From: Chloroflexota bacterium
Lineage (GTDB): Bacteria; Chloroflexota; Anaerolineae; Ardenticatenales; JAADHH01
Direction of reading: 5' to 3'
DNA: 64,000 nucleotides
Assembly: GCA_013151955.1 (NCBI GenBank)
Contig: JAADHH010000095.1
Coordinates: 3,195-67,194, forward strand
Below are positions 2,695 to 63,591 of the stretch, in pieces (the stretch's first letter is position 1; every line of letters begins with the position of its first letter). A program made the translations under genes and the position numbers. The notes under the pieces are model-generated. The model saw nothing but the letters and a program-made list of their open reading frames with translations, searched no databases and was not told the origin of the DNA.

Positions 2695-2779
2695 CAAATG
2701 CAGTTCAGAATCTCATTTTGGGATCAGCAAATACAGTATACGCCGAACGGCCAATTTGTCAAGACAAGACGATTTCAAA

Positions 2780-2940
2780 GCAGTCCCCATGAGCGGCGCG
2801 CTCGCCACCAAGGATGAAAATGGCGGGGCGTGAAACGTGAAGACGTGAAACGTATTGCGTATTGCGTATTGCGTCTTACGCATCACGTTTTACGTTTTAC
2901 CTGACACCTGACACCTTATTTTCAAAGAAGTTGAACTTCT
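2780..2940 (+). repeat. Family E composite repeat, copy E1 (heptamer-phased array 2829-2915)
   Basis: CGTGAAA CGTGAAGA CGTGAAA (CGTATTG)x3 CGTCTTA CGCATCA (CGTTTTA)x2 (CCTGACA)x2. Flanked by ...CACCAAGGATGAAAATGGCGG and TTATTTTCAAAGAAGTTGAACTTCT. Confidence 0.9.
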
Positions 2941-3019
2941 AACTGGATGTGGTATAATCTCGAGCAAGTAAAGTTGAACCGTGCAGCCCGATTTCGCTAT
3001 GGACGGCGAGCCAACACTC

Positions 3020-5556: not shown

Positions 5557-7488
5557 ATGACGAAACAGCATTTTTTGCGAATGGTTCACAGGAAGGATAT
5601 TGGCGTACATGCCCCGTTAGCAGCTCTGATGGTTGTGTATGCTCTCCTTTTCTCCTTTCTGAGTTTGCGGCTGCATCAAACGTTTCATACGGGCAACGAT
5701 CTGGCCGTCTTTTCACAAGTCATTTGGAACACAACACAGGGACGTCCATTCGAAACTTCTCTGGTGGCCGAAGCAACCAACTTCTTGGGGCAACATTTCT
5801 CCCCGATTCTGGCACTCTTCACGCCGCTATACGCCATACGACCTGACGCCGGGATTCTGTTAGTCAGCCAGGCCGTCATCGTGGCGCTGGGTGCTATCCC
5901 CCTTTATGCCTATGCTACTCGCAAGCTGGGCGGAACAAGGTGGGGCCTGGGCATAGCCACAGCCTATCTCCTGTTTCCTGCGGTCCATTTCGTAACCCTG
6001 GACGAGTTTCATCCCATTGCCCTCGCCATCCCCCTTTTGGGATTCGCTGCGTACAGCTTACTCATGCGTCGTTACCGGGCTTTCTTTCTCGTCTTTGCCG
6101 TTGCCATGCTGGTGAAAGAGGAAACGACGCTGATCCTGGCCGGCATGGGTCTGCTCATCTTCTTCGTACACCGTCGCATCCGGTTGGGGATCGTGACAAC
6201 AGCACTCGGCGTGGGCCTGGCCGGCCTGCTACTGTATGTGATCATCCCGGGCCTGGCCCGTCCGGGATATGGCTACGTCTTTACACACCGCTATGATTAC
6301 CTTGGTGAAAATGTGACAGACATTGTTTTTCACCTGGTGACCCATCCGCAAATGGTTTTGCCGTACCTTTTGATCTGGCCCAAAGCGCTCTTCCTTATCC
6401 AACTATTCGGCGCGGTATCCCTGCTCCCTTTATTGGCACCAGGAACGCTGCTCATGGCGCTGCCCACCTTTGTCTATTTGCTGCTCAGTGATTACCCGTT
6501 TCAGTATTCGATCCAACACCAGTACACGGCCCCGCTCATTCCCATCTTGTTCCTGGCAGCGGTAGATGGCCTGTACCGGCTGTACCGGTGGGGACAAGGG
6601 CACGGCCACGATTGGCGGGTACCGGGGATGGGGATGTTGTTGGGCAGCGCGTTGCTCGCATTTGCCCTGTGGTCGCCCGCACCCCTCGGCGGAGCCTTCG
6701 ATCCGTCCGAGTACGCCATCACTGCACATGTGAAAGCCGGCCACCGGCTACTGGCCCAGATTCCCGCACAAGCCAGTGTCGCATCGGACTGGAAATTCTA
6801 TCCCCACCTGAGCAACCGCCGGGTGCTGGGCGACCTGCTGAACCCCCGTGTCTCCCCGGTGGATTTCGTGCTGGTGGATCAACCACCCGGCTATGTGTCG
6901 GCCCCGCTCTATCCCCACGTGTTGTTGCCCAAAGCAGACCAACCGTTGGTTTACCCCCTCTTCCAGGACATCGTCAAAGAAGACAATATCACCCTGAGTC
7001 AATACCAGCGGGACATAGTACTCCAGGGAATAGATGCCCGTTTTGGGGAGGTCCTCCGACTGGTCGCGATGGGCTGGATCAACGGCCCCTATGTCCCAGC
7101 GGGGCAACCGGCCAGACTTGTCCTTGTCTGGCAGGCCACGAGCCACCTGGACAAACGCTACGTGTTTTTTGTACACCTGCTTCGCACGCAGGATCAAGAA
7201 ACATCGTTGGTTGCGCAAGATGATCAAGAGCTGGGTAGGGGGCTGTTTCCAACGACAAAGTGGGATGAATGGGGTGCGAACAAACTTCTGGCCGATGAAT
7301 ACACCCTCTCCCCTCCACCGACCCTGCCGGCCGGCGACTACACCCTGACCGCGGGCGTCTATCCTCGCAGCGGTGGGCCGAACCTCACGGGAACAGACCG
7401 CCAAGGCAACGCCGTGGGCAACGAAGTCTACCTCGGCGTGTTGCACCTGACGCAATCGTCGCCCGCGAGGGAAGGGGGAACCCCATGA
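5557..7488 (+). CDS. DUF2079-type polytopic membrane protein (putative GT-C glycosyltransferase) with extracytoplasmic C-terminal beta-rich domain
   Basis: 855-aa ORF trimmed to ATG 5557 (MTKQHFLRMVHRKDIGVHAPLAALMVVYALLFSFLSLRLHQTFHTGNDLAVFSQVIWN...). The upstream 212 codons overlap the permease gene and are Arg/Gly-rich noise. Confidence 0.8.
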   Translation: MTKQHFLRMVHRKDIGVHAPLAALMVVYALLFSFLSLRLHQTFHTGNDLAVFSQVIWNTTQGRPFETSLVAEATNFLGQHFSPILALFTPLYAIRPDAGILLVSQAVIVALGAIPLYAYATRKLGGTRWGLGIATAYLLFPAVHFVTLDEFHPIALAIPLLGFAAYSLLMRRYRAFFLVFAVAMLVKEETTLILAGMGLLIFFVHRRIRLGIVTTALGVGLAGLLLYVIIPGLARPGYGYVFTHRYDYLGENVTDIVFHLVTHPQMVLPYLLIWPKALFLIQLFGAVSLLPLLAPGTLLMALPTFVYLLLSDYPFQYSIQHQYTAPLIPILFLAAVDGLYRLYRWGQGHGHDWRVPGMGMLLGSALLAFALWSPAPLGGAFDPSEYAITAHVKAGHRLLAQIPAQASVASDWKFYPHLSNRRVLGDLLNPRVSPVDFVLVDQPPGYVSAPLYPHVLLPKADQPLVYPLFQDIVKEDNITLSQYQRDIVLQGIDARFGEVLRLVAMGWINGPYVPAGQPARLVLVWQATSHLDKRYVFFVHLLRTQDQETSLVAQDDQELGRGLFPTTKWDEWGANKLLADEYTLSPPPTLPAGDYTLTAGVYPRSGGPNLTGTDRQGNAVGNEVYLGVLHLTQSSPAREGGTP

Positions 7489-9946: not shown

Positions 9947-10102
9947 TCAGGTGCCAGCGAGACCACTGGTAATCGCACTGAATACGCTACCGATTTGCGG
10001 GCCAAGTAACGCCAGAATGGCGATAACAATCACGGCCACGAGTACTAGGATCAACGCATATTCGACCAGACCTTGCCCTTCCTCTTGAGGGAGATACAAC
10101 AT
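9947..10102 (-). CDS. flp: Flp/Fap-family type IVb pilin precursor (51 aa)
   Basis: Too short for the ORF track; found by hand. MLYLPQEEGQG|LVEYALILVLVAVIVIAILALLGPQIGSVFSAITSGLAGT has the G/xxxEY Flp cleavage motif and a hydrophobic helix. SD AAAGGAGGTGA lies 6 nt upstream of the ATG. Confidence 0.85.
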   Translation of the reverse strand: MLYLPQEEGQGLVEYALILVLVAVIVIAILALLGPQIGSVFSAITSGLAGT

Positions 10103-10285: not shown

Positions 10286-10422
10286 GTGTCAGGTGTCAGG
10301 TGTCAGGTAAAACGTGATGCGTGATGCGTAAGACGCAATACGTTTCACGTCTTCACGTTTCACGTCCCGCCATTTTGAAAATAAGTTTAGAAGTTCAACT
10401 TCTCGGAGAAGTTGAACTTCTT
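10286..10422 (-). repeat. Family E composite repeat, copy E2 (inverted relative to E1)
   Basis: The reverse complement reads CGTGAAA CGTGAAGA CGTGAAA CGTATTG CGTCTTA (CGCATCA)x2 CGTTTTA (CCTGACA)x3. Two AGAAGTTSAACTTCT palindromes at 10389-10421. Confidence 0.9.
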
Positions 10423-14628: not shown

Positions 14629-14861
14629 TAAGAACTCAAATCTATCTTAAATTATCGGCACGGTTCATTTTACAAAGAAAACAGTTGGACAAATGGTAAC
14701 GGTTTGCACAGGCAAAATCCGTGACGCGTGGCCCGTGAAAAGAGCCTTCTTTCACGCATTACATTTCACGTTTTACGCGGATTCTTCCCGGCACCAAAAC
14801 TCCATTTGTCAACCTGCTTTCAGACCGTGCTGAACCATGCCCAATTATCCATCGTCGGGGG

Positions 14862-17050: not shown

Positions 17051-17206
17051 CCTAGCAGGCTGTCGGAGAGGTCTGTTTTCTTCTCTATTAGGTCACAGAT
17101 TCTCACAGAGAAACACAGATGTTCAGGCCAAATCATCGGAAAATCTGTGTTTATCCTGCAAATCTGTGTCCCATGATTCTTTCTTTTCTCCGACAAGCTG
17201 CTAGTT
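17051..17206 (+). repeat. Family C repeat, copy C1 (subtype a, with terminal inverted repeats)
   Basis: CTAGCAGGCTGTCGGAGAG (left) is inverted relative to CTCCGACAAGCTGCTAG (right). The core 'CACAGATTCTCACAGA...AAAATCTGTGTTTATCCTGCAAATCTGTGTCCCATGATTCTTTC' is shared with 31681-31757. The left end forms a hairpin plus T-rich run just after the rplY stop. Confidence 0.8.
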
Positions 17207-22536: not shown

Positions 22537-22634
22537 GCGTGTCACCACTGGCGACAGAAGCTGCCCGCGGTGGAAACCGCGCCTATGGCTGCAAAGTTGG
22601 CGACAGGAGCGCCCTCCTTTTTTGAGAGAATATG

Positions 22635-22765
22635 GTATCTTCTCAATAATTCGGGGTAGGGGCACGGCCTTGCGCCTGCCCCGTAGGGCGACCGCTGCCC
22701 CGTAGGGTGACCGGCTGCCCCATAGGGCGACCGCAAGGGTACGCCCCTACTTTTTGAGAAGATAC
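22635..22765 (+). mobile_element. MITE, shared-TIR superfamily, core type B (copy B1)
   Basis: TIRs GTATCTTCTCAATAATTCGGGG / rc GTATCTTCTCAAAAAGTAGGGG. Flanking 8-mers AGAATATG (22627-34) and AGAATACG (22766-73) match at 7 of 8 positions, consistent with a TSD. Core holds 3 copies of a ~19-bp unit CTGCCCCGTAGGGCGACCG. Confidence 0.85.
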
Positions 22766-31397: not shown

Positions 31398-31427
31398 TCG
31401 CAACGCGCTCCTTTGCTCACCCATTTC

Positions 31428-31518
31428 GTATCTTCTCAATAAAACGGGGTGGGACGACCCAGAAGTTCGACTTTTGGTAAAAGTCGAACTTCTTCGCCCC
31501 GGAATATTGAGAAGATAC
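31428..31518 (+). mobile_element. MITE, shared-TIR superfamily, core type D (copy D1)
   Basis: GTATCTTCTCAATAAAACGGGG ... CCCCGGAATATTGAGAAGATAC. Core is the palindrome AGAAGTTCGACTTTTGGTAAAAGTCGAACTTCT. No TSD is visible. Confidence 0.8.
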
Positions 31519-31757
31519 GTCAACATCGACAAAAAGTTGTCTATGTTTCTGTAGGACACAGATTCTCACAGAAAAACAGTATCTTCTCAAAAAGTAGGGG
31601 CGATCCCTTGCGGTCGCCCTACGGGGCAGGCGCAAGGCCATGCCCCTACCACACGGATTATTGAGAGGATACGAAAAACAGAGATAAAACATTCAGAAAA
31701 ATCTGTGTTTATCCTGCAAATCTGTGCCCCATGATTCTTTCTCCGACAAGCTGCTAG
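31519..31757 (+). repeat. Family C repeat, copy C2 (mosaic), interrupted by MITE B2
   Basis: GTCAACATCGACAAAAAGTTGTCTATGTTTCTGTAGGACACAGATTCTCACAGAAAAACA [insert] GAGATAAAACATTCAGAAAAATCTGTGT...CTCCGACAAGCTGCTAG. The uninterrupted form is at 63421-63480. Confidence 0.85.
31579..31672 (-). mobile_element. MITE, shared-TIR superfamily, core type B (copy B2), nested inside repeat C2
   Basis: GTATCTTCTCAA...TTGAGAGGATAC flanked by a perfect 8-bp direct repeat GAAAAACA (31571-78 and 31673-80). The copies at 63421-63480 and 48001-48040 carry GAAAAACA only once. Confidence 0.9.
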
Positions 31758-32744: not shown

Positions 32745-32852
32745 TCTCCGGTATGGGCGCCCCTTGCGGTCGCCTTGGGCCAGGGCGAGCCTTGGGCCAG
32801 GGCGAACCTTGGGCAAGGGCGAACCTTGGGCAAGGGCGAACCTTGCCCCTAC
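32745..32852 (-). repeat. TIR-less type-B core containing a 4.5x tandem 17-bp repeat
   Basis: Units CCTTGGGCCAGGGCGAG (32773-89), CCTTGGGCCAGGGCGAA (32790-806), and CCTTGGGCAAGGGCGAA twice (32807-40). Flanked by CCCTTGCGGTCGCC and CCCCTAC as in MITE B cores. Fills the E1-alpha/E1-beta gap. Confidence 0.85.
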
Positions 32853-36243: not shown

Positions 36244-36310
36244 GCTATATCCTCCATTTTGAAAATAGGTTTCGAGTTGTATATTCCGTGTTGCGTCGCT
36301 CGACGCTCGA

Positions 36311-36520
36311 CGCGATTTTCATCCGTGGTGGCGTGCAACCGCTCAGGGTGACTGTTATGAAAATAACGTGTCAGGTAAAACGTAATGCGTGATGCGTGAT
36401 GCGTAAGACGCAATACGCATTACGTTTCACGTCTTCACGTTTCACGCATTACGTTTCACGCCTTCACGTTTCACGTCCTACGATTTTCATCCTTGGTGGC
36501 GGGCAACCGCCCATGGGCAC
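36311..36520 (-). repeat. Family E composite repeat, copy E3 (longest array, about 15 units)
   Basis: 36369-36478 is the inverted heptamer array with the GAAA block duplicated. Bracketed by a ~38-bp direct repeat CGATTTTCATCCNTGGTGGCGNGCAACCGC (36314-50 and 36481-520). Confidence 0.9.
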
Positions 36521-36628
36521 TGCTTTCTTAATACTACCCTGTTTCGCAAAAAAATGCAAGAGGCCGATGTTCCACGGTTGACAAACGAACCTACGCGCGC
36601 TAGAATAAGTTCATCACATTGGGAGGTC

Positions 36629-39034
36629 ATGAGGAACGTGAAACACCATTTGCCGCTTGCTTTTGTCCTGGTCGCCTCGCTCGGCTTGCTGCTTTCTGGC
36701 AGCGTTGTGCGGGCTGCCACCCCACGCCCCGTTTCGCCTGCTCCGGCCCCCCTCCCCGGCCTGCCCGCTCGCGGGGTGACGGCCCTCAGCCTTGACGCAA
36801 ACGGGGAACTCTGGGCCGGCACCCTCACGGGACTGGCCCATTTCGATGGACGGCGCTGGCAGACATTCGCAACAGCGCGTGCAATCGGCGTGCCCTGGAT
36901 CTCGGCCCTGCTGACCGACCGGCAGGGGCGTCTTTGGGCCGGCACCCTGGGGAAGGGGCTGTACCGTCGCGACGGAAACGAGTGGCGAACGGTGGACCGG
37001 CCCTTGCCGAAGACCACAAGCGACTGGATCACCGCTCTGGCAACGGACGATGGGGGCCGCTTGTGGGCCGGCACCTTTGGTGGCGGGCTCGCCTCCTTCG
37101 ACGGAACAACCTGGACGCGATACCCCCACAGCAATGGCCCGGCCGGCCCCTGGGTCCAGACGCTAACGTCGGACCGCCAGGGCCAGGTCTGGGTGGGGAC
37201 GTGGGCCGGCGGCTTGAGTCGATTCGACGGCCATACGTGGCAGACGTACACTGTGGCCGATGGCCTACCCGACAATCAAGTGAACGCCCTGGTCGTGGGG
37301 GCCGATGGTGCGCTGTGGGCCGGTACGAACGCGGGCTTGGCCCGTTTTGATGGCCGGCAGTGGCAAACCTTCACCGTGGCGCGCGGTCTGCCGGACGACC
37401 ACATTTCCGCATTGGCCGCCGCACCCGACGGCACGATCTGGGTAGGCACGGCGCGCGGTCTGGCCCGCTTTCAGGATGGCCGATTCTCTGTGGTGTGGAC
37501 CGGCGAAAGTTCGACGCCGCCGGTCATTTCGGCTCTGGCCACCGACCCACAGGGCACGCTCTGGATCGGCACGCTAAGAGAGGGAGTGTTTCGCCTGGGC
37601 AACGCTCCGCCCCCGGCCGTGCAAAACGCACACAGGCCGGTCGTTCTCGTCCACGGCTGGCACGGCCCTGCCAGCGACCTGCTTGCCGACAGCCAACTCA
37701 AGTTCCTGGCCCGTTGGCTGCGTGCCGACGGCTACCCGGTCTTCTACGCCACGGACATCACTGCGGAGCGGACGCTGGACGAAAACGCCCGGGCGTTGCA
37801 GCAGACGATCACCCGTGCCCGCCGAGCCACCGGCGCAAGCCGCGTACACCTGATCGGCCACAGCATGGGCGGCCTGGTCGCCCGCGCCTATGTGGAATCG
37901 GACCGCTACGCCGGCGACGTCGCCTCAGTGACCATGCTGGGCACGCCGAACGGCGGGCTGCACTTGTGGTATGGCCAACTGGCCCGCTGGCTGCGTGAGG
38001 GCCGCGCCGAGCCATCGCTGATCGAATTGACGCCAGAATTCATGGCCAGGTTCAACGCGACCCATCGCCCGCCCCCCGCTGTGCCCTACCTGCTGCTGGC
38101 CGGCGACCTGACCGGGCGGGTGGATGTGTTGCGCGGCTGGCCGGCCAACGACGGCCTGATCCGGCGAGACAGTGTCTTCGCCCTGCCCGGCGTCCACGTC
38201 TCCACCGCTGATGCCCACGGCTGGACCGACGAGACCATTCTGTATGGCGTGCCGGCATACACCTGGCCACGCCGCACCTATGACCGCTATATCCGGCCCT
38301 GGCTGAACGATTGCGACGAACGGAGTGACTCGCCGTCGTGCGCTCCAGCACCTCCCGTGCCACGGGCCACGGTTGAAGCCCCACACGTTCCGCCCCACAC
38401 GCCAACCATCACCCGCAACATTGCCGCCGGCACCACGCTCACTCTGCCTCTCACCCTGGACCTCACGGGCACAGCACGCTTCTTCCTGACCTGGGATAGC
38501 GGTGACATACGGTTCCGGCTGGTGACGCCCGGCGGAATCGTACACGACGGTGAACAAGGTGAGCGCGACAAAGGCGTTGCCTACCTGCGATTGCGCGACC
38601 CGGAAATCGTGCCCTTTGCGGTATATCGTGTGACGAAGCCCCCGGCCGGCCGCTGGTTGATGGTGGTTGAGAATCGGGGAATCGCTCCGGCAACAATAAC
38701 AGCGTACGCCGTGCCGGAGGACGGCCAGACGCTGGATGTGTCCACCGACAAAATTCAATACGCTGCGAGCGAACCGGTCGTCATTCGCGCGGCCTGGCAA
38801 GTGAACGGGCAGCCGGTGCGTGGCGGCACACTGGTCGCAAAGGTGGCGGCGGAGGGGGGGTACCGCTCCGTGCTCCTGGCCGACGACGGCCGGCACGAAG
38901 ACGGCCGGGCCAACGATGGCCTGTATGCTGCGCAATTCGTGCCCTCGCAGGCCGGGTACCAGGTGGCTTCCGTCACCGCTCGCCGGCCGGGCAGGACACC
39001 CCGTGTGCAAGAGATCATCTTCAACGTTTCTTGA
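36629..39034 (+). CDS. Secreted fusion protein: seven Reg_prop-type beta-propeller blades, then alpha/beta-hydrolase (lipase class 2/PGAP1-like), then C-terminal Ig-like domains
   Basis: ORF from 36554 trimmed to ATG 36629 (SD GGGAGG): MRNVKHHLPLAFVLVASLGLLLSGSVVRAA signal peptide. Seven '(L/V)W(A/V/I)GT..GL..FDG..W' blades. 'VVLVHGWHG' and 'IGHSMGG' (Ser codon 37862-64). C-terminal 'LLADDGRHEDGRANDGLYAAQF'. Confidence 0.85.
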   Translation: MRNVKHHLPLAFVLVASLGLLLSGSVVRAATPRPVSPAPAPLPGLPARGVTALSLDANGELWAGTLTGLAHFDGRRWQTFATARAIGVPWISALLTDRQGRLWAGTLGKGLYRRDGNEWRTVDRPLPKTTSDWITALATDDGGRLWAGTFGGGLASFDGTTWTRYPHSNGPAGPWVQTLTSDRQGQVWVGTWAGGLSRFDGHTWQTYTVADGLPDNQVNALVVGADGALWAGTNAGLARFDGRQWQTFTVARGLPDDHISALAAAPDGTIWVGTARGLARFQDGRFSVVWTGESSTPPVISALATDPQGTLWIGTLREGVFRLGNAPPPAVQNAHRPVVLVHGWHGPASDLLADSQLKFLARWLRADGYPVFYATDITAERTLDENARALQQTITRARRATGASRVHLIGHSMGGLVARAYVESDRYAGDVASVTMLGTPNGGLHLWYGQLARWLREGRAEPSLIELTPEFMARFNATHRPPPAVPYLLLAGDLTGRVDVLRGWPANDGLIRRDSVFALPGVHVSTADAHGWTDETILYGVPAYTWPRRTYDRYIRPWLNDCDERSDSPSCAPAPPVPRATVEAPHVPPHTPTITRNIAAGTTLTLPLTLDLTGTARFFLTWDSGDIRFRLVTPGGIVHDGEQGERDKGVAYLRLRDPEIVPFAVYRVTKPPAGRWLMVVENRGIAPATITAYAVPEDGQTLDVSTDKIQYAASEPVVIRAAWQVNGQPVRGGTLVAKVAAEGGYRSVLLADDGRHEDGRANDGLYAAQFVPSQAGYQVASVTARRPGRTPRVQEIIFNVS

Positions 39035-39073
39035 CACTGTGTGATCCATAGTGTATACTGTACTTTGAAAACA

Positions 39074-39262
39074 GTAGCCATGCGCGGCTGCGCGCCACCA
39101 ACGATGAAAATGGCGGGACGTGAAACGTGAAGGCGTGAAACGTAATGCGTATTGCGTCTTACGCATCACGCATCACGCATTACGTTTTACCTGACACCTG
39201 ACACGTTATTTTCATAACAGTCGTCAGAGCGTGTTGCGTAGTGCGTATTGCGTGCCGCTCGC
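39074..39262 (+). repeat. Family E composite repeat, copy E4
   Basis: CGTGAAA CGTGAAGG CGTGAAA CGTAATG CGTATTG CGTCTTA (CGCATCA)x2 CGCATTA CGTTTTA (CCTGACA)x2, followed by extra NTTGCGT units at 39231-39255. Confidence 0.9.
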
Positions 39263-39314
39263 CCATTGAAAATTGAAATTTGATCATTATTTGTCTGACA
39301 ATGGAGTCGACTAC

Positions 39315-40514: not shown

Positions 40515-40526
40515 CAATGATTGAAG

Positions 40527-40655
40527 GTATCTTCTCGATAATTCGGGGTGAGCAGAACGTCATGCCCCCCTAACCCCCCAACTTTGGGGGGAATGTGCTC
40601 CCCCAGAATTGGGGGCCGGGGGGCGTTCGCGTTCCCCAAGTTATCGAGAAGATAC
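40527..40655 (+). mobile_element. MITE, shared-TIR superfamily, core type A (copy A2) with perfect 8-bp TSD
   Basis: GTATCTTCTCGATAATTCGGGG ... CCCCAAGTTATCGAGAAGATAC. Flanked by GATTGAAG at 40519-26 and 40656-63. Inserted between the CoA-transferase stop and the thiolase RBS. Confidence 0.92.
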
Positions 40656-47873: not shown

Positions 47874-47890
47874 ATTCTAGCACCAAGTTT

Positions 47891-48085
47891 CTACGCATTG
47901 TCCGAGACTTCGCTCAGAAAATGTGGCCCCTGACGGGGCAGTTGACAAAAGGACAGGGGACACAGATTTACACAGGCTTCGACACAGGCTTCGCACACAG
48001 ATTTTTCTGAATGTTTTATCTCTGTTTTTCTGTGTCCTACAGAAACATCGACAACTTTTTGTCGACCTTGACGCCCTAAGCGCCT
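47891..48085 (-). repeat. Family C repeat, copy C3 (subtype b)
   Basis: The reverse complement is about 90% identical by eye to 63391-63582. It fills the cpaE-cpaF intercistronic gap and abuts the cpaE stop codon. Confidence 0.88.
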
Positions 48086-49376
48086 ACCGCTTCCGCCACC
48101 GTCTAAATAGTCCTCCGGGAGTTGCTGCCTGCTTTTTGTGCATTGTTTCCGTCGGACCCGGCGGGGGCAGTTGTTCGACGATTTGCTGGGCCAGGTGTAA
48201 CAGGTTCTGCCCAACAGCAGAGTTCGGCTGCCCCTGTACGACAGGCAGACCCTGGTTGACGGCTTTGGTCGTTGCCGCATCATCACGTATCACGTCGGTA
48301 AGGACAGGATGTTTCACACTGGCTTCTATGTCGCGTACGCGAATCCCTCCTCGGGGGTCGTGCTTGTTGAGCACGAGCAAAATCTTTTCCGGCTCATAGG
48401 TCAAAGCCTCGGTAACCTCGAAGAAGGTCTTGGTATTTTTTATGGCCGTTATTTCGGTCGTCGTCAACAGAATGATTCGGTCGCTAAGATCAAATAGAGT
48501 CAATGTTGGTTCTTGGAAAGAAGTCCACGTATCAATTACGATGTAATCAAAGATCAGTCGCAGCTTCTCCAGGATTATGGTCAGGTGCTCCGTCGTGACG
48601 AGTTCGGCCATCTCGGGCTTGGGTGGTGAGAGCAGGGCCTTTACGCCGGAGGAGTGCGTGATCAGCAAACCGGCCAGGAATTCTTCGTCCAGGTCGTCAA
48701 TTTGCTCGACGGCGTCAACTATGCTCCTTTGGGAAGAAAGGTTCAGGAGTACACCCACGTCGCCAAATTGCAGACTGCCATCCACAATCGCTACTTTGGT
48801 CTTCGTCACTTCTCGAATGGCGATTGCCAGATTGGTGACCACCGTGCTGGTTCCGACCCCCCCCTTTGCGCCATAAACGGTAATCACTCTCCCTTTCGGC
48901 GATGGCGGGACGGGCTGGGCGACCGGTACCGGAGCCAACGCCTCTCCTTGGGGAGGCGGGGGGGTGGCCGGGCGACGGCGCTGGCCCAAGTCGTAAACGC
49001 GCCGTATGCTGGTGACCAATTCTTCTGCGGTGAAGGGTTTGATCAGGAATTCGCGTGCGCCGGCCAACATGGAACGTCGCAGGTAGTCGGCCTCTCCCTG
49101 TACCGACATCATGATCACCTGGGTGTTGGGAGCGCTTTCCGATATTTTCTCGCCGGCCGTCACCCCGTCCATGCCCGGCATGTTGATGTCCATCAAGACG
49201 ACATCTGGCTGCAACTCCATGACCATCTCGACACCTTCCGCACCGTCCGATGCCGAGCCAACAACCTGAATGTCCTTTTCGAAGTATAGGAGCTTCTTTA
49301 GGTTCTCACGAGTTTCCGGTATATCATCCACAACCAGGACGTGGATCATTTTGTTAGGGTCTGCGTTTTCAGACAT
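48084..49376 (-). CDS. cpaE: Response-regulator receiver domain fused to CpaE/TadZ-type MinD/ParA ATPase
   Basis: 430 aa. REC 'IHVLVVDDIPETR...DVVLMDINMPGMDG...MMSVQG...FLIKPF' has all phospho-acceptor residues. Then 'VITVYGAKGGVGTSTVVTNLA', a deviant Walker A. Confidence 0.9.
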   Translation of the reverse strand: MSENADPNKMIHVLVVDDIPETRENLKKLLYFEKDIQVVGSASDGAEGVEMVMELQPDVVLMDINMPGMDGVTAGEKISESAPNTQVIMMSVQGEADYLRRSMLAGAREFLIKPFTAEELVTSIRRVYDLGQRRRPATPPPPQGEALAPVPVAQPVPPSPKGRVITVYGAKGGVGTSTVVTNLAIAIREVTKTKVAIVDGSLQFGDVGVLLNLSSQRSIVDAVEQIDDLDEEFLAGLLITHSSGVKALLSPPKPEMAELVTTEHLTIILEKLRLIFDYIVIDTWTSFQEPTLTLFDLSDRIILLTTTEITAIKNTKTFFEVTEALTYEPEKILLVLNKHDPRGGIRVRDIEASVKHPVLTDVIRDDAATTKAVNQGLPVVQGQPNSAVGQNLLHLAQQIVEQLPPPGPTETMHKKQAATPGGLFRRWRKR

Positions 49377-53954: not shown

Positions 53955-54035
53955 GTCCTCATCTCTTCCCCAGTTGTCAGCTTATGACACGTGAAACGTG
54001 TTCCGTACTGCACCGTTCACCATTCATCATTCACG

Positions 54036-57000
54036 CTACGGGCAGGGTCTGGTCCCAGTGATCTGCGGGGCCAGGTCCACAACGTGGGTCTGGTCGTCAG
54101 AACCCGTGAATGAGACTTGAGCCGTACCCGCCGAACTGGGTGGCGGATTGCTCACAGTCGCCGAAAGCGTGATCGTCACCGAATCGTCAACCTTCATGTT
54201 GCCCAGGTTCCAGGTCATCGTCTGGCCATTGACGCTGGCCGGCGACGGATTGGCCGAGCCGTTCACATATTGCAAGTCAGCCGGCAACACCTCGGTAACT
54301 ACCACATTCTTCCAAATGATCTGTGTGATCTGTGTGCCAATATCCTGGAAAATTCCGGCTAGATCGCTGGAGTTCGGCGCTTCATAGTAATGCGCACTAT
54401 CCGAAGCCATACTTCGCAGTACATTGCGGGCCAGGTTCTCCGTAGCGCTGCCGTGTTGCTGCCCGACATCGCCCAGGTTGAGACCAATCGTGAATACCGT
54501 GGTCCCCTGGTTCTTGGCGGAAGCCGCTTGGTTGATGGCGTCATTCGTGCAGTTGGTGGGCGAAGAGGGCCAAGTGCTGCAACCCTGGGAGCTGCCATGC
54601 CGGCGGTTGGCCACACCATCGCTCAGCACGACGATGATCGGTATGGCATTGCTTCGCGCCCGGCTGCTGTTTAGCTCTTGTTGAGCCTTGTAGACGGCAT
54701 CGCCGATGTTGGTGTAACCATTGGCGTTGAAGTTGTCGATGGCGTTTTTCACGCTATTGAAATTGTTCGTCAGACTGTGGTCCTTGCTGGCTGTCGTAGA
54801 GTAGGAAACGAGCCCTACTTTGTCCGTGCTGGAATCGAGCTGATCGATCAGCAGTTTGGCCGCACTCTTGGCATCGCTGATGGGCTGCGGTGGGTTGCCA
54901 CCCGCGTCGTCCATGGAACCGGAGCGATCGAGCACGATCATGACATCCAGCTTGGTATGTTGCGTGAACGGTGTCCCCGTAGGTTGGACCCCTATGGCAA
55001 TGTCGGCAATCTCGCACTGCCCAGAGGTCGTCGGCGTAGCCGTTACCGTTGGTGTGGGCGTGGCTGTGGACGTGGGCGTGCTGGTAGCCCCTCCCTGCGG
55101 CGTACTGGTCGCCGCCGGCGGCGCGCACGGCCCCGGTTGCACGTTGACTGTGTTCTGACCAACGCGGCTGGGCGATGCGTGGATGTAGGGGATCGTCACA
55201 TGGTCGAACCCGGCTTGCCCAAAGGCGGCCTTGTCCACGTCCACGGTGTAAATCACTTCGTAGAGCCAGTTCGGATAACTCGGGTTGGGCGTGTAGTTGG
55301 CATCTGTCGCCGGCGAATCGGTGGTCATGTTGGAGTATCCGGCGCTATTCAGATTGTAGTCCAGCGATGTAGAAGCGCTCAGCACCCAGGCTGCATTCCC
55401 CACATTCACGCTGCCGTCACCGCCCGTCACCCCTTGGGAGGCATAGCCGGAAGGCGCGCTGCCATCCACATCCAGATAGTCTACGGAAATATCCATCACC
55501 TCACTGCCGTTGCCATCGTAGAGCAGGAACTGCGCCCGGTCGCTCTTCCAGAGGTCCTGGAACGTGTGTTGTTTGAGCCGGCCATTCTTCCAGTACTCAG
55601 ATGTGTTGGCTCCGTAGGTGTTGTCCACGAATTCCTTATCCAATACCAGGCGGATGCGGATGTACCCGCCCATGTCTGTGGCGTACAGTTGGGTGTAGAA
55701 GTATTCGGGTCCCTGGCCCGGGTAGGCCGGGTTTGGCGACACATAGCAGACTTCCTGGCTGCCGCCGGGGGTCGGCGTGGCGGTGGGCGAACCGGAAGGG
55801 GTGGTCGTACTCGTCGGCGTCGATTCAGGCCCCTGACTGCCGCCGCTGCCACTGGTGGTGATGCTGCAACCATTTTCAAAGTAGAAGGTCACCACAAAGT
55901 CGCCCATGTTGAAATAGGAAGCCAGGTCGGATGGACTATGGTCGAAGTCCGCCTCCCAGGTTTTGCCGTGGTTCTTCTTGATTTCCTTATCACCGGAGAA
56001 GTGCGAGACGTCGGTGGGGGACGAATGCCCATCGCCACCCCAGATGCGGTGGCCGCCCAACTTGAACCAGTCGATCTTCATGTGCGGGTAATGATCGCTC
56101 TCCGGCCAGTAGAAGACAATGCGGTCGAGTTCTGCATCCTCGTCCGTGCCATTCGTGATTGTGGTTTGCACGTGGTCCTTGTTGCTGGGCACGGTGACCA
56201 GTTGGCTGGCCGTCAGACCGCTGCACTGCGACGAGGTCGTCGGTACCGGCGTGGGGCTAGGCTGTGCCGTAGACTCTGGCGTGGGGCTAGGCCCAAACTG
56301 GCTGCTGCCCGATGCGGAAACGGCGCACCCACCCTCGAAATAAATGGTCACCTGGTAGCTGGAGAGGTTGAAGACGTCGGTCAAGTGTTCGGGGCCGTCC
56401 TTGATCTTGGCTTTCCAGGTCTTGTGGTGGCCGTGCTCAATCTCACGGTGATCATCATGTCCAGACAGGGTGACATCGGTGGGCGGCGAGGCGTCATCTC
56501 CCTCCCATATTTCGTGGTCATCCAGCTTGAACTTGTCCACCTTCATGTTGGGGTAATCGCCGCTGGTCGGCCAGACAAAGTAGATCCGGGTAATCTTGGC
56601 GTTATCGTGACTGGCATTGTTCGTAAGGGTAACCCGCAGTTCGTCATTATCGTGCAAGGTTATGTCGCTGGCGGCGATGCTCTGGCACTGCGCGGGAGTG
56701 GTCGGTGTCGGGCTGCTGGCAATTGTTGTGGCGGTGGGAGACGAGCGGCCGCAATCCGAGACCTGGATGGTAACAGAATCTTGCTCACCGGTCGCCGGTA
56801 CGACAGCGTACACACGGTAGCGTCCGGTGCCCTGGTTGCCTCCGTTCATGTCGTCGGGGACAACGGTAACATTGCGATGGGCATTGAAGTCATCCAGGTG
56901 CCAGTTCCGAAACTGTTCCGGCCCCGGTTGTTGTTCGTAATAGAAAGTATACGACGTGCCCACCGGAGAGACTTGCACATAGTTGCTCAGATTGAACGTG

Positions 57001-57560: not shown

Positions 57561-57717
57561 GGGTCCTGCCCTCCACGTCTACGCAAGCATGTAGAATCCG
57601 AAGATGGTCTTGAAATAGTCTTTGCCTTCTACTATTATATCCTAACGCTACGTGCCAAGCAATAGGATTGTAGTACCGTTACACAGCCAACTTCTGCCAT
57701 TGTGACAAGCAAATGAG

Positions 57718-57842
57718 GTATCTTCTCAATAATTCGGGGTGAGTGGACCGTCGTGCCTCCCTACCCCCCAAAAACTTTTGGGGGAGTGTGCTCCCCCAGA
57801 ATTGGGGCCCCGGGGGCGTTTCCCAGGTTATTGAGAAGATAC
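57718..57842 (+). mobile_element. MITE, shared-TIR superfamily, core type A (copy A3)
   Basis: GTATCTTCTCAATAATTCGGGG ... CCCAGGTTATTGAGAAGATAC. Flanks CAAATGAG / CAAATGGA match at 6 of 8. Confidence 0.85.
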
Positions 57843-57898
57843 CAAATGGACGAATCGGCGAATGTCCCCTGGCCAAAGACCACGCCGGTCTGCCAAAA

Positions 57899-59885: not shown

Positions 59886-59945
59886 AGAAGTTTTCTCCCA
59901 GAAGTTCAACTTCTCCCAGAAGTTGAACTTCTGAACTTCTGGGGG
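59886..59945. repeat. Cluster of AGAAGTTSAACTTCT palindromes
   Basis: AGAAGTTTTCTCCCAGAAGTTCAACTTCTCCCAGAAGTTGAACTTCTGAACTTCTGG. The same palindrome is found at 2926-2940, 10389-10421 and within MITE D1. Confidence 0.85.
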
Positions 59946-61408: not shown

Positions 61409-61700
61409 GCTCCATTCGGCCTTTTCGGCGAATCGCAGAGAGAGATTCGTTCCGCTTTCCGCCCCTGGGTGATTGTCCTGCAAAGTAGGCGTACACAATG
61501 GAGGTCAACATTTATTCCATCCGCTAAATTATACCAAATTTCTTGCCAAAAGTAAATAGGCGCTTAGGGCGTCAACATCGACGAAATTTTGTCACTGCTT
61601 TGAAAACCAGATGTCAGTTGTCAGTCGTCAGTAGCCAGATGTCAGATGTCATATCATGTAGCCCTTGAATCCCCATTCCAGGGCGGGTTCGTCCCTCTGG

Positions 61701-61767
61701 CCCCCCTACCCCCCCAATCCTGGGGGGAACCATCCGACTCCCCCCAGAATTGGGGGGCCGGGGGGGC
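61701..61767 (+). repeat. TIR-less fragment of the type-A MITE core
   Basis: CCCCCCTACCCCCCCAATCCTGGGGGGAACCATCCGACTCCCCCCAGAATTGGGGGGCCGGGGGGGC parallels the A1-A3 cores. A family C left-end fragment sits at 61556-61595. Confidence 0.7.
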
Positions 61768-61803
61768 TTCCGCCGCTCCACGCTCCACGCCCCTCCTCGC
61801 AGG

Positions 61804-63285
61804 TCACTCTTGCAGCAGTGTGATGGCTGCTTGCAAGCGTTGCAACACCCGTTCCCTCCCCAATATGTGAATCGTGCCAAAGAGGGGGGGCGACACCTTC
61901 TTGCCGGTGACGGCCACGCGAATTGGGCCAAAAAAGGCGTTGGGCTTGAGCTGCCTTCCGGTAACGACGGCCCGCAAGGCTGTTTCCACGTCGGTCTCCG
62001 CAAAGGTGGGGAGAGAAGCAAGCGTTTGGTAGGCCAAATCCAGCAGTTGCCGGGTTTGATCCACGGTCTGTTTCTTGCCGACCAGATCGTGGGGGGTAGG
62101 GTGGACTTCCGGGACGAAGAAACTGTCAACCAAGTCAACGGCGTCGGGCAGACGCTTGATGCGCACCCGAATGAGTGGTACCAACGCGCGCAAGGTATCC
62201 ATATCCGGGGATAGTCCCGCGTCGCGCAGAACAGGGAGCAGGCGGGCCGCCAAATCATCCACGGGCATCGTGCGGATGTACTGACCATTCATCCAATCAA
62301 GCTTTTCATAGGAGAAGGCAGCGGCGGATGGCTTCACCTGGTCCAGGTCAAAATGATCGATCAGTTGTTGGCGGGTGATGATCTCCGTGTGATCGTCGTA
62401 GCTCCAACCGATCAGGGCCAGGAAGTTGAACAGGGCCTCCGGCAGGTATCCTGCGGCGCGAAAATCTTTCAGATGGACGTAAGCTTCGCGATTGCCGGCC
62501 AGTTTCTTGCGTTTGCTCATTTTCCCTTTGCCGGAGGGGTCCAAAATGATCGGCAGATGCGCGAAGAGGGGCGGCGTCCACCCAAACGCTGCGTAGAGTT
62601 GCACATGTTTGGGCACGCTGGGCAACCATTCATCGGCACGCAGGACGTGCGTGATGGCCATCAAATGATCATCCACGACGTTGGCCAGGTGGTAGGTCGG
62701 AAAGCGGTCCGTTTTGAGCAGCACAAAATCATCGAGCGTCTCATTCTGCACGACGATGTCCCCCCTGATCTGGTCGTGGAATCGAGTTTCCCCTTCCAGC
62801 GGCATTTTGAAGCGTACGACTGCTGTCTCTCCCCGCGCTTCGCGGTCCCGTCTTTGCTGCGCTGTCAGCCCGCGACAGCGGCGGTCGTAGCCGGCCGGTT
62901 CTTTGCGTGCCTGCCGTTCTTTTCGCATTTGGGCCAGGCGGTCGGGAGAGCAGAAGCATTTATAGGCATGGCCCTCCGCAATCAGTTGTTCGGCGTATCG
63001 GCGATAGATATCCGTCCTCTCAGACTGGAAGTAGGGACCGTAGGGGCCACCGGCTTCCGGGCCTTCATCCCAATCGAGGCCCAGCCAACGCAAGCCACTC
63101 AGCAGGTCGTCCAACGCATCCTCCTGGTAGCGTGTGCGGTCGGTATCCTCGATACGGAGGATGAACTGCCCGCCGTAGTGCCGGGCAAAGAGCCAGTTGA
63201 ACAGTGCCGAGCGGGCACCGCCCACGTGGAGATAGCCGGTGGGACTGGGTGCAAACCGTACACGTGGTCTTTGTTCTTGTTTCAT
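61804..63285 (-). CDS. gltX: Glutamyl-tRNA synthetase
   Basis: ORF to 63453 runs into repeats; trimmed to ATG 63285: MKQEQRPRVRFAPSPTGYLHVGGARSALFNWLFARHYGGQFILRIEDTD (HIGH region); 'KMSKR' (KMSKS). Confidence 0.95.
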   Translation of the reverse strand: MKQEQRPRVRFAPSPTGYLHVGGARSALFNWLFARHYGGQFILRIEDTDRTRYQEDALDDLLSGLRWLGLDWDEGPEAGGPYGPYFQSERTDIYRRYAEQLIAEGHAYKCFCSPDRLAQMRKERQARKEPAGYDRRCRGLTAQQRRDREARGETAVVRFKMPLEGETRFHDQIRGDIVVQNETLDDFVLLKTDRFPTYHLANVVDDHLMAITHVLRADEWLPSVPKHVQLYAAFGWTPPLFAHLPIILDPSGKGKMSKRKKLAGNREAYVHLKDFRAAGYLPEALFNFLALIGWSYDDHTEIITRQQLIDHFDLDQVKPSAAAFSYEKLDWMNGQYIRTMPVDDLAARLLPVLRDAGLSPDMDTLRALVPLIRVRIKRLPDAVDLVDSFFVPEVHPTPHDLVGKKQTVDQTRQLLDLAYQTLASLPTFAETDVETALRAVVTGRQLKPNAFFGPIRVAVTGKKVSPPLFGTIHILGRERVLQRLQAAITLLQE

Positions 63286-63309
63286 GTCTCCCCTTGATTT
63301 GATACTTTC

Positions 63310-63390
63310 GTATCTTCTCAATATTTTGGGGGAATGTGCTCCCCCCAGAATTGAGGCCCGGGGGGCGCTCCCCAAGTTATTGAGATGATA
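63310..63390 (+). mobile_element. MITE, shared-TIR superfamily, truncated type-A core (copy A5)
   Basis: GTATCTTCTCAATATTTTGGGGGAATGTGCTCCCCCCAGAATTGAGGCCCGGGGGGCGCTCCCCAAGTTATTGAGATGATAG. The right TIR is degenerate, and there is no TSD. Confidence 0.75.
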
Positions 63391-63582: not shown

Positions 63583-63591
63583 ATACTTTCG

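Follow-up and report, generated by a model that had tools for sequence, protein, structure and literature searches.

The stretch of DNA analysed here (64,000 nucleotides of a Chloroflexota contig, in the following the window) contains four full copies, designated E1 to E4, of an array of 7- and 8-nt units (Table 1). We interpret these arrays as a heptad minisatellite, selfish or neutral and with slippage as its mode of evolution, rather than as a shared operator or leader, and assign to this reading a probability of about 0.5; it is one of the three roles offered in the initial annotation, and the one favoured by the evidence. The observation of the four arrays is confirmed: reading the sequence and splitting it into units exactly reproduced the claimed series, which in E1 runs CGTGAAA, CGTGAAGA, CGTGAAA, CGTATTG (three times), CGTCTTA, CGCATCA (once), CGTTTTA (twice) and CCTGACA (twice). 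E2 has the same unit order, but with ATTG once, CATCA twice, TTTA once and CCTGACA three times, while E4 reads GAAA, GAAGG, GAAA, AATG, ATTG, CTTA, CATCA (twice), CATTA, TTTA and CCTGACA (twice), and E3 is like E4 except that the 29-nt block GAAA-GAAGR-GAAA-AATG is doubled and CCTGACA occurs once. The arrays are composite, with 7–8 unit types in a fixed order and octamers interspersed, and do not consist of one single repeated unit. The 24-mer CGTGAAACGTGAAGNCGTGAAACG occurs five times in the window (0.00 expected from shuffles), and chains of at least eight CG dinucleotides spaced by 7 or 8 nt are present in the window only at E1–E4. Tandem Repeats Finder (TRF) reported period 7 at all four sites, in line with the phasing proposed initially, together with a period-29 duplication in E3; the true phasing, however, is 7 or 8 nt, CGTGAAGR being an octamer, and the invariant feature of the arrays is an RCGY every 7 or 8 nt, with all units in the same phase. 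Period 7 also outnumbers every other tandem-repeat period, both in the window (12 of 20 repeats) and in the loci of the census described below (172 of 392 repeats, 94 of these 172 belonging to other unit classes). A CRISPR array, with direct repeats of about 23–55 nt and unique spacers of similar length, had been rightly dismissed, as the units are 7–8 nt long and contiguous, with zero spacers.

The difference among the four copies consists almost exclusively in the gain or loss of complete units. E1 and E2 are separated by four changes of unit number and by no substitution within the array, and the distal part of E3 is 99% identical to E4 over 79 nt, unit number aside, which bears out the slippage-type evolution suggested from the first reading. 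Such whole-unit divergence is the signature of slipped-strand mispairing. Variation of the same kind is seen between genomes, one orthologous site in three species carrying 3, ~7 and ~8 left-arm units (loci L029, L093 and L097, respectively). An overrepresentation of heptanucleotide repeats, general among bacteria, has been ascribed to polymerase slippage (Mrazek 2007, as summarized in PMC4679880), and the arrays share with the LSSR (Mrazek et al. 2007) and the cyanobacterial STRR heptamers the head-to-tail 7-nt units, the mostly intergenic location and the highly variable copy number (PMC4679880, PMC4692102), as well as the occurrence of several unit types in one genome and the predominance of period 7 over all others. 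Compared with that class of repeats, the arrays exhibit head-to-tail 7-nt runs beyond chance and copy-number variation, but not a single repeated unit: they mix related units of 7 and 8 nt as two arms of a palindrome with RCGY fixed in phase and, unlike LSSR/STRR, they have one unit pair, CGTGAAA/CGTGAAGA, that is preserved without change in different phyla.

The series described initially as collinear does keep its unit order, but it represents the two arms of an imperfect palindrome. Each array is such a quasi-palindrome, its left-arm units (of the types CGTGAAA and CGTAATG) complementing right-arm units (of the types CGTTTTA and CGCATTA) and giving long hairpins, which folding predicted on both strands (z from -2.6 to -7.6); in E1, the unpaired CCTGACA units stand between the stem and TTATTTTC. 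The complementary pair AATG/CATTA is present with both members in E3 and E4 and missing with both members in E1 and E2. The degenerate fragment noted initially is real, and could not be aligned with the equivalent spacer of the relatives L103 and L105; the window contains also a second degenerate copy, overlooked in the initial annotation (Table 1).

Table 1. Arrays, associated modules and degenerate copies in the window.
Feature	Position	Strand	Remarks
E1 module: CAGT-CCCC-ATG, small hairpin GAGCG/CGCTC, then CGCCACCAAGGATGAAAAT	2781–2821	+	hairpin covaries among copies
E1 array, 12 units	2829–2915	+	linker GGCGGGG ahead at 2822–2828; predicted fold -42.5 kcal/mol, z -5.7
E1 closing motif TTATTTTCAAAG	2916–2927	+	inverted partner of ATGAAAAT; also after E3 and E4 and after the cargo in metagenome copies
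E2 array, 11 units	10286–10364	-	on the 5' side linker GGCGGGA (10365–10371) and TTATTTTCAAAAT (10372–10384); without hairpin module
Degenerate remnant	14745–14785	-	reads CGTAAAA CGTGAAA TGTAATG CGTGAAAGAAGG... on the minus strand
E3 continuation: TTATTTTCATAA, module b (36315–36354), second cargo with CGTCGAG heptads (36268–36314), TATTTTCAAAAT	36256–36366	-	TATTTTCAAAAT directly before the ald ribosome-binding site
E3 array, ~16 units, four-unit 29-nt block doubled	36368–36482	-	predicted fold -60.9 kcal/mol, z -7.2; missing in the L099 ortholog
E3 module a	36483–36522	-	directly downstream of a conserved ald promoter-like stretch; also in relative L099, there without array
E4 module	39072–39111	+	13 nt downstream of promoter-like TTGACA-17-TATACT (39031–39059)
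E4 array, 12 units	39119–39205	+	linker GGCGGGA ahead at 39112–39118; inverted relative to E3, the distal part of which is 99% identical
E4 closing motif TTATTTTCATAACAGT, then second divergent CG-phased run CGTCAGAG CGTGTTG CGTAGTG CGTATTG CGTGCCG	39206–39265	+	
Second degenerate copy	53985–54036	+	ACGTGAA ACGTGTT ... TTCACCA TTCATCA TTCACG; flanked by two TadE-domain genes, opposite in orientation to both

E1, E3 and E4 sit in the variable slot of a small conserved module, known from roughly 17 copies, in which a hairpin and CGCCACCAAGGATGAAAAT are followed by a cargo and then by TATTTTCA; these three arrays are bracketed by ATGAAAAT and ATTTTCAT, while E2 is not. Copies of the module in metagenomes have either no cargo or one made up of REP hairpins or IS110 elements, including IS110 transposases. 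The cargo of one such copy (L100) is a heptad hairpin of unrelated CG-phased units and that of another (L109) a true GTAG-type REP hairpin, and in the second cargo of E3 TRF identified a repeat of CGCTCGA (2.4 copies). A leader peptide starting from the ATG of the module or from AAGGATGAAAATG was considered and rejected, since the reading frame is not the same in E1 as in E3/E4 and the length of the hairpin is not divisible by three.

Relatives with 81–88% identity lack the arrays at the orthologous sites. The ald leader of L099 (~88% nucleotide identity) has 24 nt where the window has 236 nt, and the array is absent; the comparison reveals a replacement and not a clean insertion. The cca-flp spacer, orthologous to the site of E2, is empty in L105 and L106, and in L103 and L104 it is occupied by other heptad arrays (GCGTGGA, 7.4 copies, and GATGAAT, 4 copies) and by the module with a different cargo. 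Because close relatives do without them at the same sites, the arrays are recent and dispensable. Recombination of E3 with E4 leading to a simple inversion was rejected: it would not yield the L099 gene order, since the ald promoter and the module stay with ald in both genomes. A scan of metagenomes for the window-specific centre ATTGCGTCTTACGCATCACG returned no matches.

The units CGTGAAA/CGTGAAGA are the basis of a very large family, of which E1–E4 are members. With membership defined by an exact match to the 24-mer, the family comprises at least 98 loci in at least 44 MAGs, and its carriers are Chloroflexota and Planctomycetota, with single matches in four further lineages, one of them a complete Poribacteria chromosome (OZ220744). 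Litorilinea/Caldilinea isolates and Tepidisphaera are among the carriers with complete genomes. Around the 98 loci no recurrent neighbour gene or transposase was identified among 627 called proteins, and a search for phage carriage gave only 2 matches in IMG/VR. In the literature library searched, no report containing the array sequence was found. The census of orientation and location called for in the initial annotation revealed near-random placement, contrary to a role tied to 5' regions: in co-directional spacers 21 arrays have the same and 16 the opposite orientation, 11 arrays are in convergent and 7 in divergent spacers (approximate counts, as the genes were called with a crude home-made caller with an error of perhaps 10–15%), and in-frame insertions encoding VKREDVKRE occur in at least three unrelated proteins. 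For 32 arrays the upstream gene is co-oriented, and 17 of these begin no more than 11 nt from the stop codon of that gene or overlap it. In having one heptamer common to distant phyla with no visible transfer mechanism, the family resembles the TAACTGA repeats of Beggiatoaceae, Cyanobacteria and Bacteroidetes, which contain stop codons and are intergenic (MacGregor 2015, PMC4679880). Those, however, are short direct repeats a few nt upstream of starts, whereas the arrays are made of a different unit, lie 65–185 nt from start codons, often abut stops and frequently possess an inverted second arm, and membership in the TAACTGA type was rejected.

In the window, the distances to start codons given initially hold (65, 184, 125 and ~110 nt for E1 to E4, respectively). 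The gene downstream of E2 is a 51-aa Flp pilin ORF (9947–10102, minus strand), and E2 is located ~75–150 nt upstream of the conserved TATAAT of this gene. E1 and E2 lie upstream of promoters and E3 and E4 downstream of them, and none of the four arrays falls between -35 and -10 or within an ORF. The genes on either side are unrelated in function and include ald and genes for a CoA-transferase, a MacB-type permease and an M20 peptidase, and no DNA-binding Pfam domain was detected in the flanking proteins scanned. An operator or leader specific to 5' regions, as had been suggested, is not supported, given the absence of the arrays from orthologous sites, the unrelated neighbours and the inconsistent position relative to promoters. 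An ECF-sigma promoter (TGAAAC-N16-CGT) was rejected as well, since, as judged by eye, the spacings of 13, 14, 20 and 22 provided by the 7/8-nt phasing do not fit. Since in the window every full copy is oriented towards a downstream start, and two of them (E3 and E4) are situated in 5' leaders, the arrays may nonetheless have a local effect in cis. GC skew follows gene orientation and is uninformative as an origin marker.

According to the reading that we prefer, E1–E4 would be copies of a non-coding, rapidly evolving and hairpin-forming minisatellite, with arms of 7- and 8-nt units and RCGY in phase. The CG clamps common to all units would favour mispairing in any register. Copies would persist in tolerant places, such as hairpin loops, repeat-filled spacers and the first bases past stop codons, and would spread by a putative copying route, in which cassettes either recombine or undergo gene conversion with each other or are mobilised in trans; for the arrays no terminal inverted repeat, target duplication or transposase was found. 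Effects on the neighbours, for instance of the hairpins of -45 to -60 kcal/mol predicted in the 5' leaders of ald and of the CoA-transferase gene, would be side effects. Pure neutrality, however, accounts neither for the 24-base identity across phyla nor for that of a one-armed in-gene copy, with 31 of 31 nt identical between two species and flanks ~75% identical, both comparisons being conditioned on the exact-match search.

Or perhaps the arrays act as RNA, with hairpins in 5' or 3' UTRs that set mRNA stability or processing (RNase III, exonuclease barrier) or translation, or supply the apical, variable stem to a structured RNA that the module forms and that regulates in cis? The predicted hairpins are strong, E3 and E4 follow promoter-like sites and hence would lie in leaders, the hairpin of the module exhibits compensatory changes between copies, ~10 of 14 module copies are in sense orientation upstream of a gene, and at a site orthologous in three species an array is located between a cobalamin riboswitch and its gene. 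We nevertheless consider this explanation unlikely. It had been argued that the need for G-U pairs would favour function as RNA in one orientation, and the strand that begins with CGTGAAA, stabilised by such pairs, does fold better (55 loci, versus 27 for the other strand), but equally so in sense and antisense orientation (14:5 versus 11:4; overall sense versus antisense 18:16), so that the asymmetry provides no evidence for selection at the mRNA level, and selection on the mRNA strand was rejected. Besides, E1 and E2 precede the promoters of their downstream genes, a second arm was found in only 38 of 89 family members, and the orthologous leaders of the relatives lack arrays. No intrinsic terminator (a GC-rich hairpin directly followed by a U tract) was called at any of the four arrays; Rfam gave no matches in the window at or above the gathering thresholds, only noise (E>2) around E3 and E4, and in seven related loci nothing but the cobalamin riboswitch adjoining an array. 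No tRNA or tmRNA was found.

Alternatively, the arrays could be phased platforms for a protein that polymerises along RCGY boxes at 7–8 bp and serves as a nucleoid-associated sink, a roadblock or a global operator, either ParB on tandem half-parS heptamers (GTGAAAC/GTTTCAC, with (CGTGAAACGTGAAGA)n as the candidate substrate) or an omega/ParG-type ribbon-helix-helix protein on contiguous heptads. A factor with cross-phylum specificity would account for the exact 24-mer in at least 44 MAGs and for the 31-nt identity of the one-armed in-gene copy, and the strand-symmetric RCGY core suits recognition of double-stranded DNA. The heptamer GTGAAAC, of which E3 contains four occurrences and the other three arrays two each, is exactly one arm of the near-universal parS (TGTTTCAC joined to GTGAAACA), a coincidence that the selfish or neutral reading leaves unexplained. 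The operators of omega (inc18 plasmids) and ParG are contiguous 7–8 bp boxes, direct and inverted, and these are to our knowledge the only well-studied proteins that read contiguous heptads; the CATCACG units of the arrays include the ATCAC core of the omega heptad. In P. aeruginosa, ParB binds ~1000 isolated GTTTCAC/GTTCCAC heptanucleotides, even as a monomer, and the lead unit of the arrays (GTGAAAC, complement GTTTCAC) equals the half-parS heptanucleotide that it recognizes (PMC10419367).

Despite these similarities, a binding platform of either kind seems distinctly unlikely. Close relatives lack the arrays and the flanking genes have no common function. The chromosomal parS (16-bp palindrome TGTTNCACGTGAAACA) is absent from the window at up to 3 mismatches, and 675 kb of loci contain no match to its core, at arm junctions or elsewhere. 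The half-site unit (123 occurrences) is matched in frequency and conservation by the octamer CGTGAAGA (101 occurrences), which does not correspond to a parS arm, and GTGAAAC makes up only 2–4 units per window array, the other units, like those of the L100 cargo hairpin, being unrelated and CG-phased. The parS match concerns one heptamer class chosen post hoc (~1 in 1170 per motif, uncorrected for how many motifs would be recognisable), and the sites are not clustered near an origin. Sites of omega and ParG are plasmid promoters or centromeres with the consensus WATCACW and the cognate gene adjacent, whereas the arrays are chromosomal, number dozens, follow another consensus and have no linked regulator gene; an omega-type operator (contiguous WATCACW heptads at the promoters of a regulon, including that of the repressor gene) was rejected, as only the CATCACG units share ATCAC and the neighbours are unrelated. 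The boldest form of the idea is in our opinion improbable: a factor of cross-phylum specificity, most economically ParB on tandem half-parS, would read the CGTGAAA/CGTGAAGA arrays and thereby keep them letter-perfect in Chloroflexota, in Planctomycetota and in one Poribacteria genome or more. The arrays would then form a hitherto unrecognised class of chromosomal landing pads or sinks for ParB or a ParB-like protein that shape the nucleoid, with the CG-phased heptad hairpins as evolutionary by-products.

A miniature transposable element with its own mobilising enzyme, such as a RAYT/IS200-type single-strand transposase or an IS110-type recombinase, and with the array as the recognised hairpin, is likewise improbable. 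Dispersed copies do have element-specific flanks common within each genome, such as the leader ATAAGGTGGCNCAGCCACGATTTGCGTGC, which precedes many arrays in Caldilineaceae CHL15, or the TIR-like AGGATTTCGTGTGG...CCACATGAAATCCT around arrays in a Chloroflexia MAG; the element-strand asymmetry resembles that of strand-specific single-stranded DNA elements, and the same module site is used by IS110. However, the surroundings of the arrays in 98 loci show no recurrent transposase family, the window copies lack target duplications, and the extent of the shared flanks is unequal between E1/E3/E4 and E2. Similarly to REP/BIME/REPIN sequences, which are targets of the IS110 family and sometimes occur without a dedicated transposase, the arrays are dispersed extragenic imperfect palindromes, nested or clustered with other repeats and occasionally intragenic (PMC3733652). 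A REP/REPIN stem-loop was rejected all the same: REPs are of 20–40 nt, with stems of 5–13 bp and an unpaired GTAG or CGTC tag, whereas the arrays are 80–115 nt long, internally tandem-repetitive and untagged, and start with CGTG (PMC3733652). Finally, contingency (phase-variation) loci, with unit number upstream of promoters or in leaders switching surface or other genes, are highly improbable in spite of unit number being the main variable among copies, of E2 lying near the TATAAT of the Flp pilin gene and of the second degenerate copy adjoining TadE-domain genes, since the remaining neighbours are housekeeping or metabolic genes, no window array is placed between -35 and -10 or within a reading frame, and the wider family occupies all contexts.

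Heptanucleotide repeats in bacteria have been known since 1990, and we are aware of no explanation for either their period or their function. The family reported here is an unusually tractable case, with a defined architecture (two complementary arms, RCGY in phase), a unit turnover that can be measured between copies and between species, a defined docking site in the cargo slot of a small module used also by IS110, and a lead sequence that does not differ between phyla and matches the ParB half-site. If simply selfish, the arrays provide a clean model for the spread of minisatellites and nested palindromes in compact genomes, gene ends and linkers included; if a conserved protein did read them, they would add a new level to chromosome organisation in phyla that have been little studied. 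On the practical side, the arrays add strong predicted hairpins to the leaders of genes such as ald, and they break short-read assemblies, 19 of the 101 array clusters touching contig ends.

The four arrays of 7- or 8-nt units in the window (E1-E4) are a real feature, a variant of the known heptanucleotide and palindromic repeat classes, and the best-supported reading is that they represent a selfish or neutral hairpin-forming minisatellite. Splitting the four sites at every CG[TC] or CCTGACA exactly reproduced the unit series described in the initial annotation, Tandem Repeats Finder reported period 7 at 4/4 sites, and chains of at least 8 CG dinucleotides with 7/8-nt spacing were identified within the window only in E1-E4. 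The leading 24 bases of the arrays (CGTGAAACGTGAAGNCGTGAAACG, hereafter the 24-mer) occur 5 times in the window, vs 0.00 expected from shuffles; a degenerate fragment noticed earlier was confirmed, and an additional degenerate copy was found. Between E1 and E2 there are four changes in unit number and zero substitutions within the array; E4 matches the distal part of E3 at 99% identity across 79 nt; and the GAAA-block duplication previously proposed for E3 comprises four units (29 nt, detected as period 29 by Tandem Repeats Finder). As whole-unit indels far outpace point substitutions, the earlier inference of slippage is sound. Such a minisatellite would settle in tolerant positions, its length would shift via slipped-strand mispairing in the 7/8-nt register, and it would be copied from site to site. 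The array sequence did not occur in the searched literature; bacteria have long been noted to carry an excess of heptanucleotide repeats, ascribed to polymerase slippage (Mrazek 2007, as summarised in PMC4679880), which matches the minisatellite account, and the arrays resemble REP-like nested palindromes (PMC3733652). Among tandem-repeat periods, 7 is the most frequent both in the window (12/20) and in the family loci (172/392, 94 being other unit classes).

Coordinates of the arrays, modules and associated features (window positions unless an L-number, i.e. a retrieved genome or metagenome stretch, is given)
Feature	Location	Strand	Composition or context
E1	2829-2915	+	CGTGAAA CGTGAAGA CGTGAAA, CGTATTG x3, CGTCTTA, CGCATCA x1, CGTTTTA x2, CCTGACA x2; flanks: thioesterase, MacB/FtsX permease
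E2	10286-10364	-	E1 series with CGTATTG x1, CGCATCA x2, CGTTTTA x1, CCTGACA x3; flanks: CCA-adding enzyme, 51-aa Flp pilin
E3	36368-36482	-	E4 with duplicated 29-nt four-unit head block; flanks: alanine dehydrogenase (ald), secreted hydrolase
E4	39119-39205	+	carries CGTGAAGG; extra CGTAATG and extra CGCATTA unit; flank: family III CoA-transferase
Degenerate copies	~14745-14785; 53985-54036
Promoter-like sites around E1	2762..2735(-); 2931..2958(+)
TATAAT near E2	10212-10207	-
Module copies, window	2781-2821(+); 36483-36522(-); 36315-36354(-); 39072-39111(+)		cargo of 36315-36354: different CG-phased stretch, CGTCGAG x2
Module copies, elsewhere	L099 1990-2024; L100 about 5680-5720(-); L103 8010-8062; L108-L130
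Empty cargo position	L108, L113		GATGAAAAT-CT-ATTTTCGTG
GTAG-type REP hairpin as cargo	L109/L118
Longer inserts as cargo	L112, L114, L129
IS110-family element as cargo	L116, L124		Pfam DEDD_Tnp_IS110
Heptad-phased hairpin as cargo	L100		CG-phased units GGACGAY and GAGCGTG, quite unlike those of E1-E4
IS110 genes after module	L116 13970-14512; L124 1408-2627; probably L121
In-frame arrays	L011 2538-2568 and L080; L021; L068		L011/L080: orthologous thioredoxin-domain/DUF255-like genes
Riboswitch, terminator and array	L097 6405-6616
GCGTGGA x7.4 array	L103 7873-7925 (= L104)
GATGAAT x4 array	L103 7960-8010 (= L104)
801-aa secreted hydrolase gene	36580-39030		inverted vs ~88%-identical L099 1-1935
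~140-nt elements	2562-2700; 22629-22765; 31422-31650; 40521-40655; 57710-57848; 63259-63397
33-nt palindromes	10389-10421; 31461-31493; 59900-59932		half-copy 2927-2940
Dispersed repeat	17089-17184; 31518-31742; 47885-48086; 63389-63588; L100 4198-4266
Other tandem arrays	61608-61651; 61700-61790; 32773-32845; 22676-22734		CAGATGT x6.3; CGCTCCA x2.4; 17-mer x4.3; 19/20-mer x3

One scan of species-representative genomes revealed the exact 24-mer in at least 98 stretches, against a calculated chance expectation of ~0.02 matches in 596 Gb; in IMG/VR it was found on two contigs only. Among the matches listed, assigned to lineages by record title, 70 loci belong to 28 Chloroflexota MAGs and 24 loci to 12 Planctomycetota MAGs (Tepidisphaeraceae, Phycisphaerales; some contigs of 208-472 kb), with one each in a complete Poribacteria chromosome and in Verrucomicrobia, Rhodothermia and Desulfobacterales MAGs. 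A complementary second arm (palindrome half) lies at most 150 nt away in 19/59 Chloroflexota and 17/26 Planctomycetota arrays among these listed matches, compared with 13/2695 control windows. The contexts of the listed matches, based on approximate calls from a home-made gene caller, are co-directional same-sense (21), co-directional antisense (16), convergent (11), divergent (7) and contig ends (19), and no recurrent gene family was identified among their neighbours. Where a listed array has a co-oriented upstream gene, it starts at most 11 nt from the stop codon or supplies that stop in 17/32 cases, which fits a unit with TGA in two frames and an opposite strand open in all three. At least three unrelated proteins contain in-frame copies, which encode VKREDVKRE and fall in linkers or loops. 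In three Anaerolineae species (L029, L093, L097) the array is kept at orthologous sites with differing unit number, within the leader preceding a gene for a periplasmic binding protein; a cobalamin riboswitch (64 bits) and its terminator hairpin precede this CGTGAAA-family array of variable length. The Poribacteria match (L061, OZ220744.1) is located at ~3,236,400 of 6,471,377, nearly half-way round the record, which is either a coincidence (n=1) or, if the record begins at dnaA, a position opposite the origin.

The selfish or neutral account does not explain the exact cross-phylum 24-mer, nor the 31/31-nt identity, in a comparison conditioned on the exact-match search, of the one-armed in-gene array in two species (L011/L080) whose flanking codons are ~75% identical. 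The most interesting surviving alternative is that the arrays may serve as ParB or other landing pads, since GTGAAAC, present in the arrays, coincides with one parS arm. ParB also binds isolated heptanucleotides of this kind (PMC10419367); however, no full parS was found in the window or the family loci, the non-parS octamer CGTGAAGA is conserved equally with CGTGAAA (101 vs 123 as the dominant units among the matches listed), and many units, in E1-E4 as well as in L100, bear no similarity to parS. The regulatory roles put forward in the initial annotation (phased regulator-binding sites or leader RNA structures) are not supported, as relatives lack the arrays and the flanking genes are unrelated.

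The neighbours of E1-E4 have no common function. L099, a metagenome contig ~88% identical over ald, retains both the module (a small conserved hairpin-bearing sequence 5' of E1, E3 and E4) and the promoter-like stretch of ald, and 24 nt replace the 236 nt of the window that comprise the array, a second module and cargo (the variable stretch after a module). At the E2 site the spacer is empty in L105/L106 (81% identity), and L103/L104 (85% identity) carry different heptad arrays, GCGTGGA x7.4 and GATGAAT x4, together with a module whose cargo is an unrelated GC-rich stretch of ~100 nt; the macB ortholog of L105 has no array upstream, gene order differing there. Missing from the orthologous sites of relatives, E1-E4 are young and dispensable, and are not conserved control elements of the flanking genes. 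Their position relative to promoter-like sites is inconsistent: E1 lies amid divergent sites, E2 is ~75-150 nt upstream of a TATAAT picked by eye, conserved in relatives and not called by the promoter scan, and E3 and E4 are downstream of such sites, which would place them in 5' leaders. No terminator-like sites were called in a scan of each array, and Rfam searches of the window and the array surroundings gave no family matches. In L103 and L104 the GCGTGGA array runs over the end of the CCA-adding enzyme gene, taking in its final codons and its stop codon, the L103 enzyme being 5 aa longer than that of the window, and the GATGAAT array grades into GACGTAG/GACGTAA units. The comparison suggests that stop-codon regions can supply the seeds from which arrays grow. 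The secreted hydrolase gene, upstream of ald and co-directional in L099, lies in the window between the inverted pair E3/E4; its inversion breakpoints do not match the array positions.

E1-E4 are quasi-palindromes, with CGTGAAA opposite CGTTTTA, CGTAATG opposite CGCATTA, and CGTCTTA in the centre; the complementary AATG and CATTA are both present in E3 and E4, and neither occurs in E1 and E2. Either strand is predicted to fold into a single long imperfect hairpin (-29 to -61 kcal/mol, z -2.6 to -7.6), and a one-base frame shift reveals a constant RCGY (ACGT, GCGT, ACGC) per 7 nt, or per 8 nt in the CGTGAAGR unit. The better-folding strand is CGTGAAA-first in 55 loci vs 27. G-U pairing had been taken to favour function as RNA, but the bias is no different when the CGTGAAA-first strand lies in sense (14:5) than in antisense orientation (11:4) relative to the neighbours, and the overall count of sense vs antisense is 18:16. 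The G-U asymmetry therefore belongs to the element or to anchoring on the perfect arm and gives no evidence of selection on mRNA.

The 40-nt module 5' of E1, E3 and E4 comprises (A)CAGTnnCC-ATG, a hairpin (4-5 bp at these arrays, 4-6 bp across all copies) that varies in sequence with pairing kept, and the invariant CGCCACCAAGGATGAAAAT; 3' of each of these arrays lies TTATTTTCA, an inverted counterpart of ATGAAAAT, and the motif closing module plus cargo across copies is TATTTTCA. E2 is without a module and begins after TTATTTTCAAAAT. The 19-mer CGCCACCAAGGATGAAAAT was found in 24 metagenome stretches, ~14 with the window architecture, and the small hairpin covaries among 15 copies (one pair is CG in 7, GC in 5 and AU in 2). 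The module has no counterpart in Rfam; its hairpin-plus-ACCA part resembles a tRNA-like minihelix, and CAAGGATG a CsrA-type site. The stretch after ATGAAAAT differs from copy to copy, so that heptad arrays are one cargo type at a hairpin-loop insertion/expansion hot spot, and the pattern of CG every 7 nt in both arms arises again with unrelated unit sequences. IS110-family transposase genes (DEDD_Tnp_IS110) begin ~200 nt past ATGAAAAT; thus the module seems to be specifically targeted by IS110 insertion, just as REP elements are by other IS110/IS1111 members.

The spacers holding arrays also hold other repeat families, which marks them as repeat-tolerant spots. A family of ~140-nt elements has terminal inverted repeats (GTATCTTCTCAATAA...TTATTGAGAAGATAC) enclosing G-run/C-run hairpins (CCCCAACTTTGGGGGG...), and one copy immediately adjoins E1. 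Perfect 33-nt palindromes (AGAAGTTCAACTTCT-N3-AGAAGTTGAACTTCT) adjoin E1 and E2, the E2 copy being called terminator-like. A dispersed repeat (containing TAGGACACAGATTCTCACAGAAAAACAG and ACACAGATTTTTCTG) is 92% conserved in a relative with genes only ~75% identical, and is therefore either mobile or under constraint. Among the other tandem arrays of the window, the CAGATGT array is akin to the opposite-strand CCTGACA unit.
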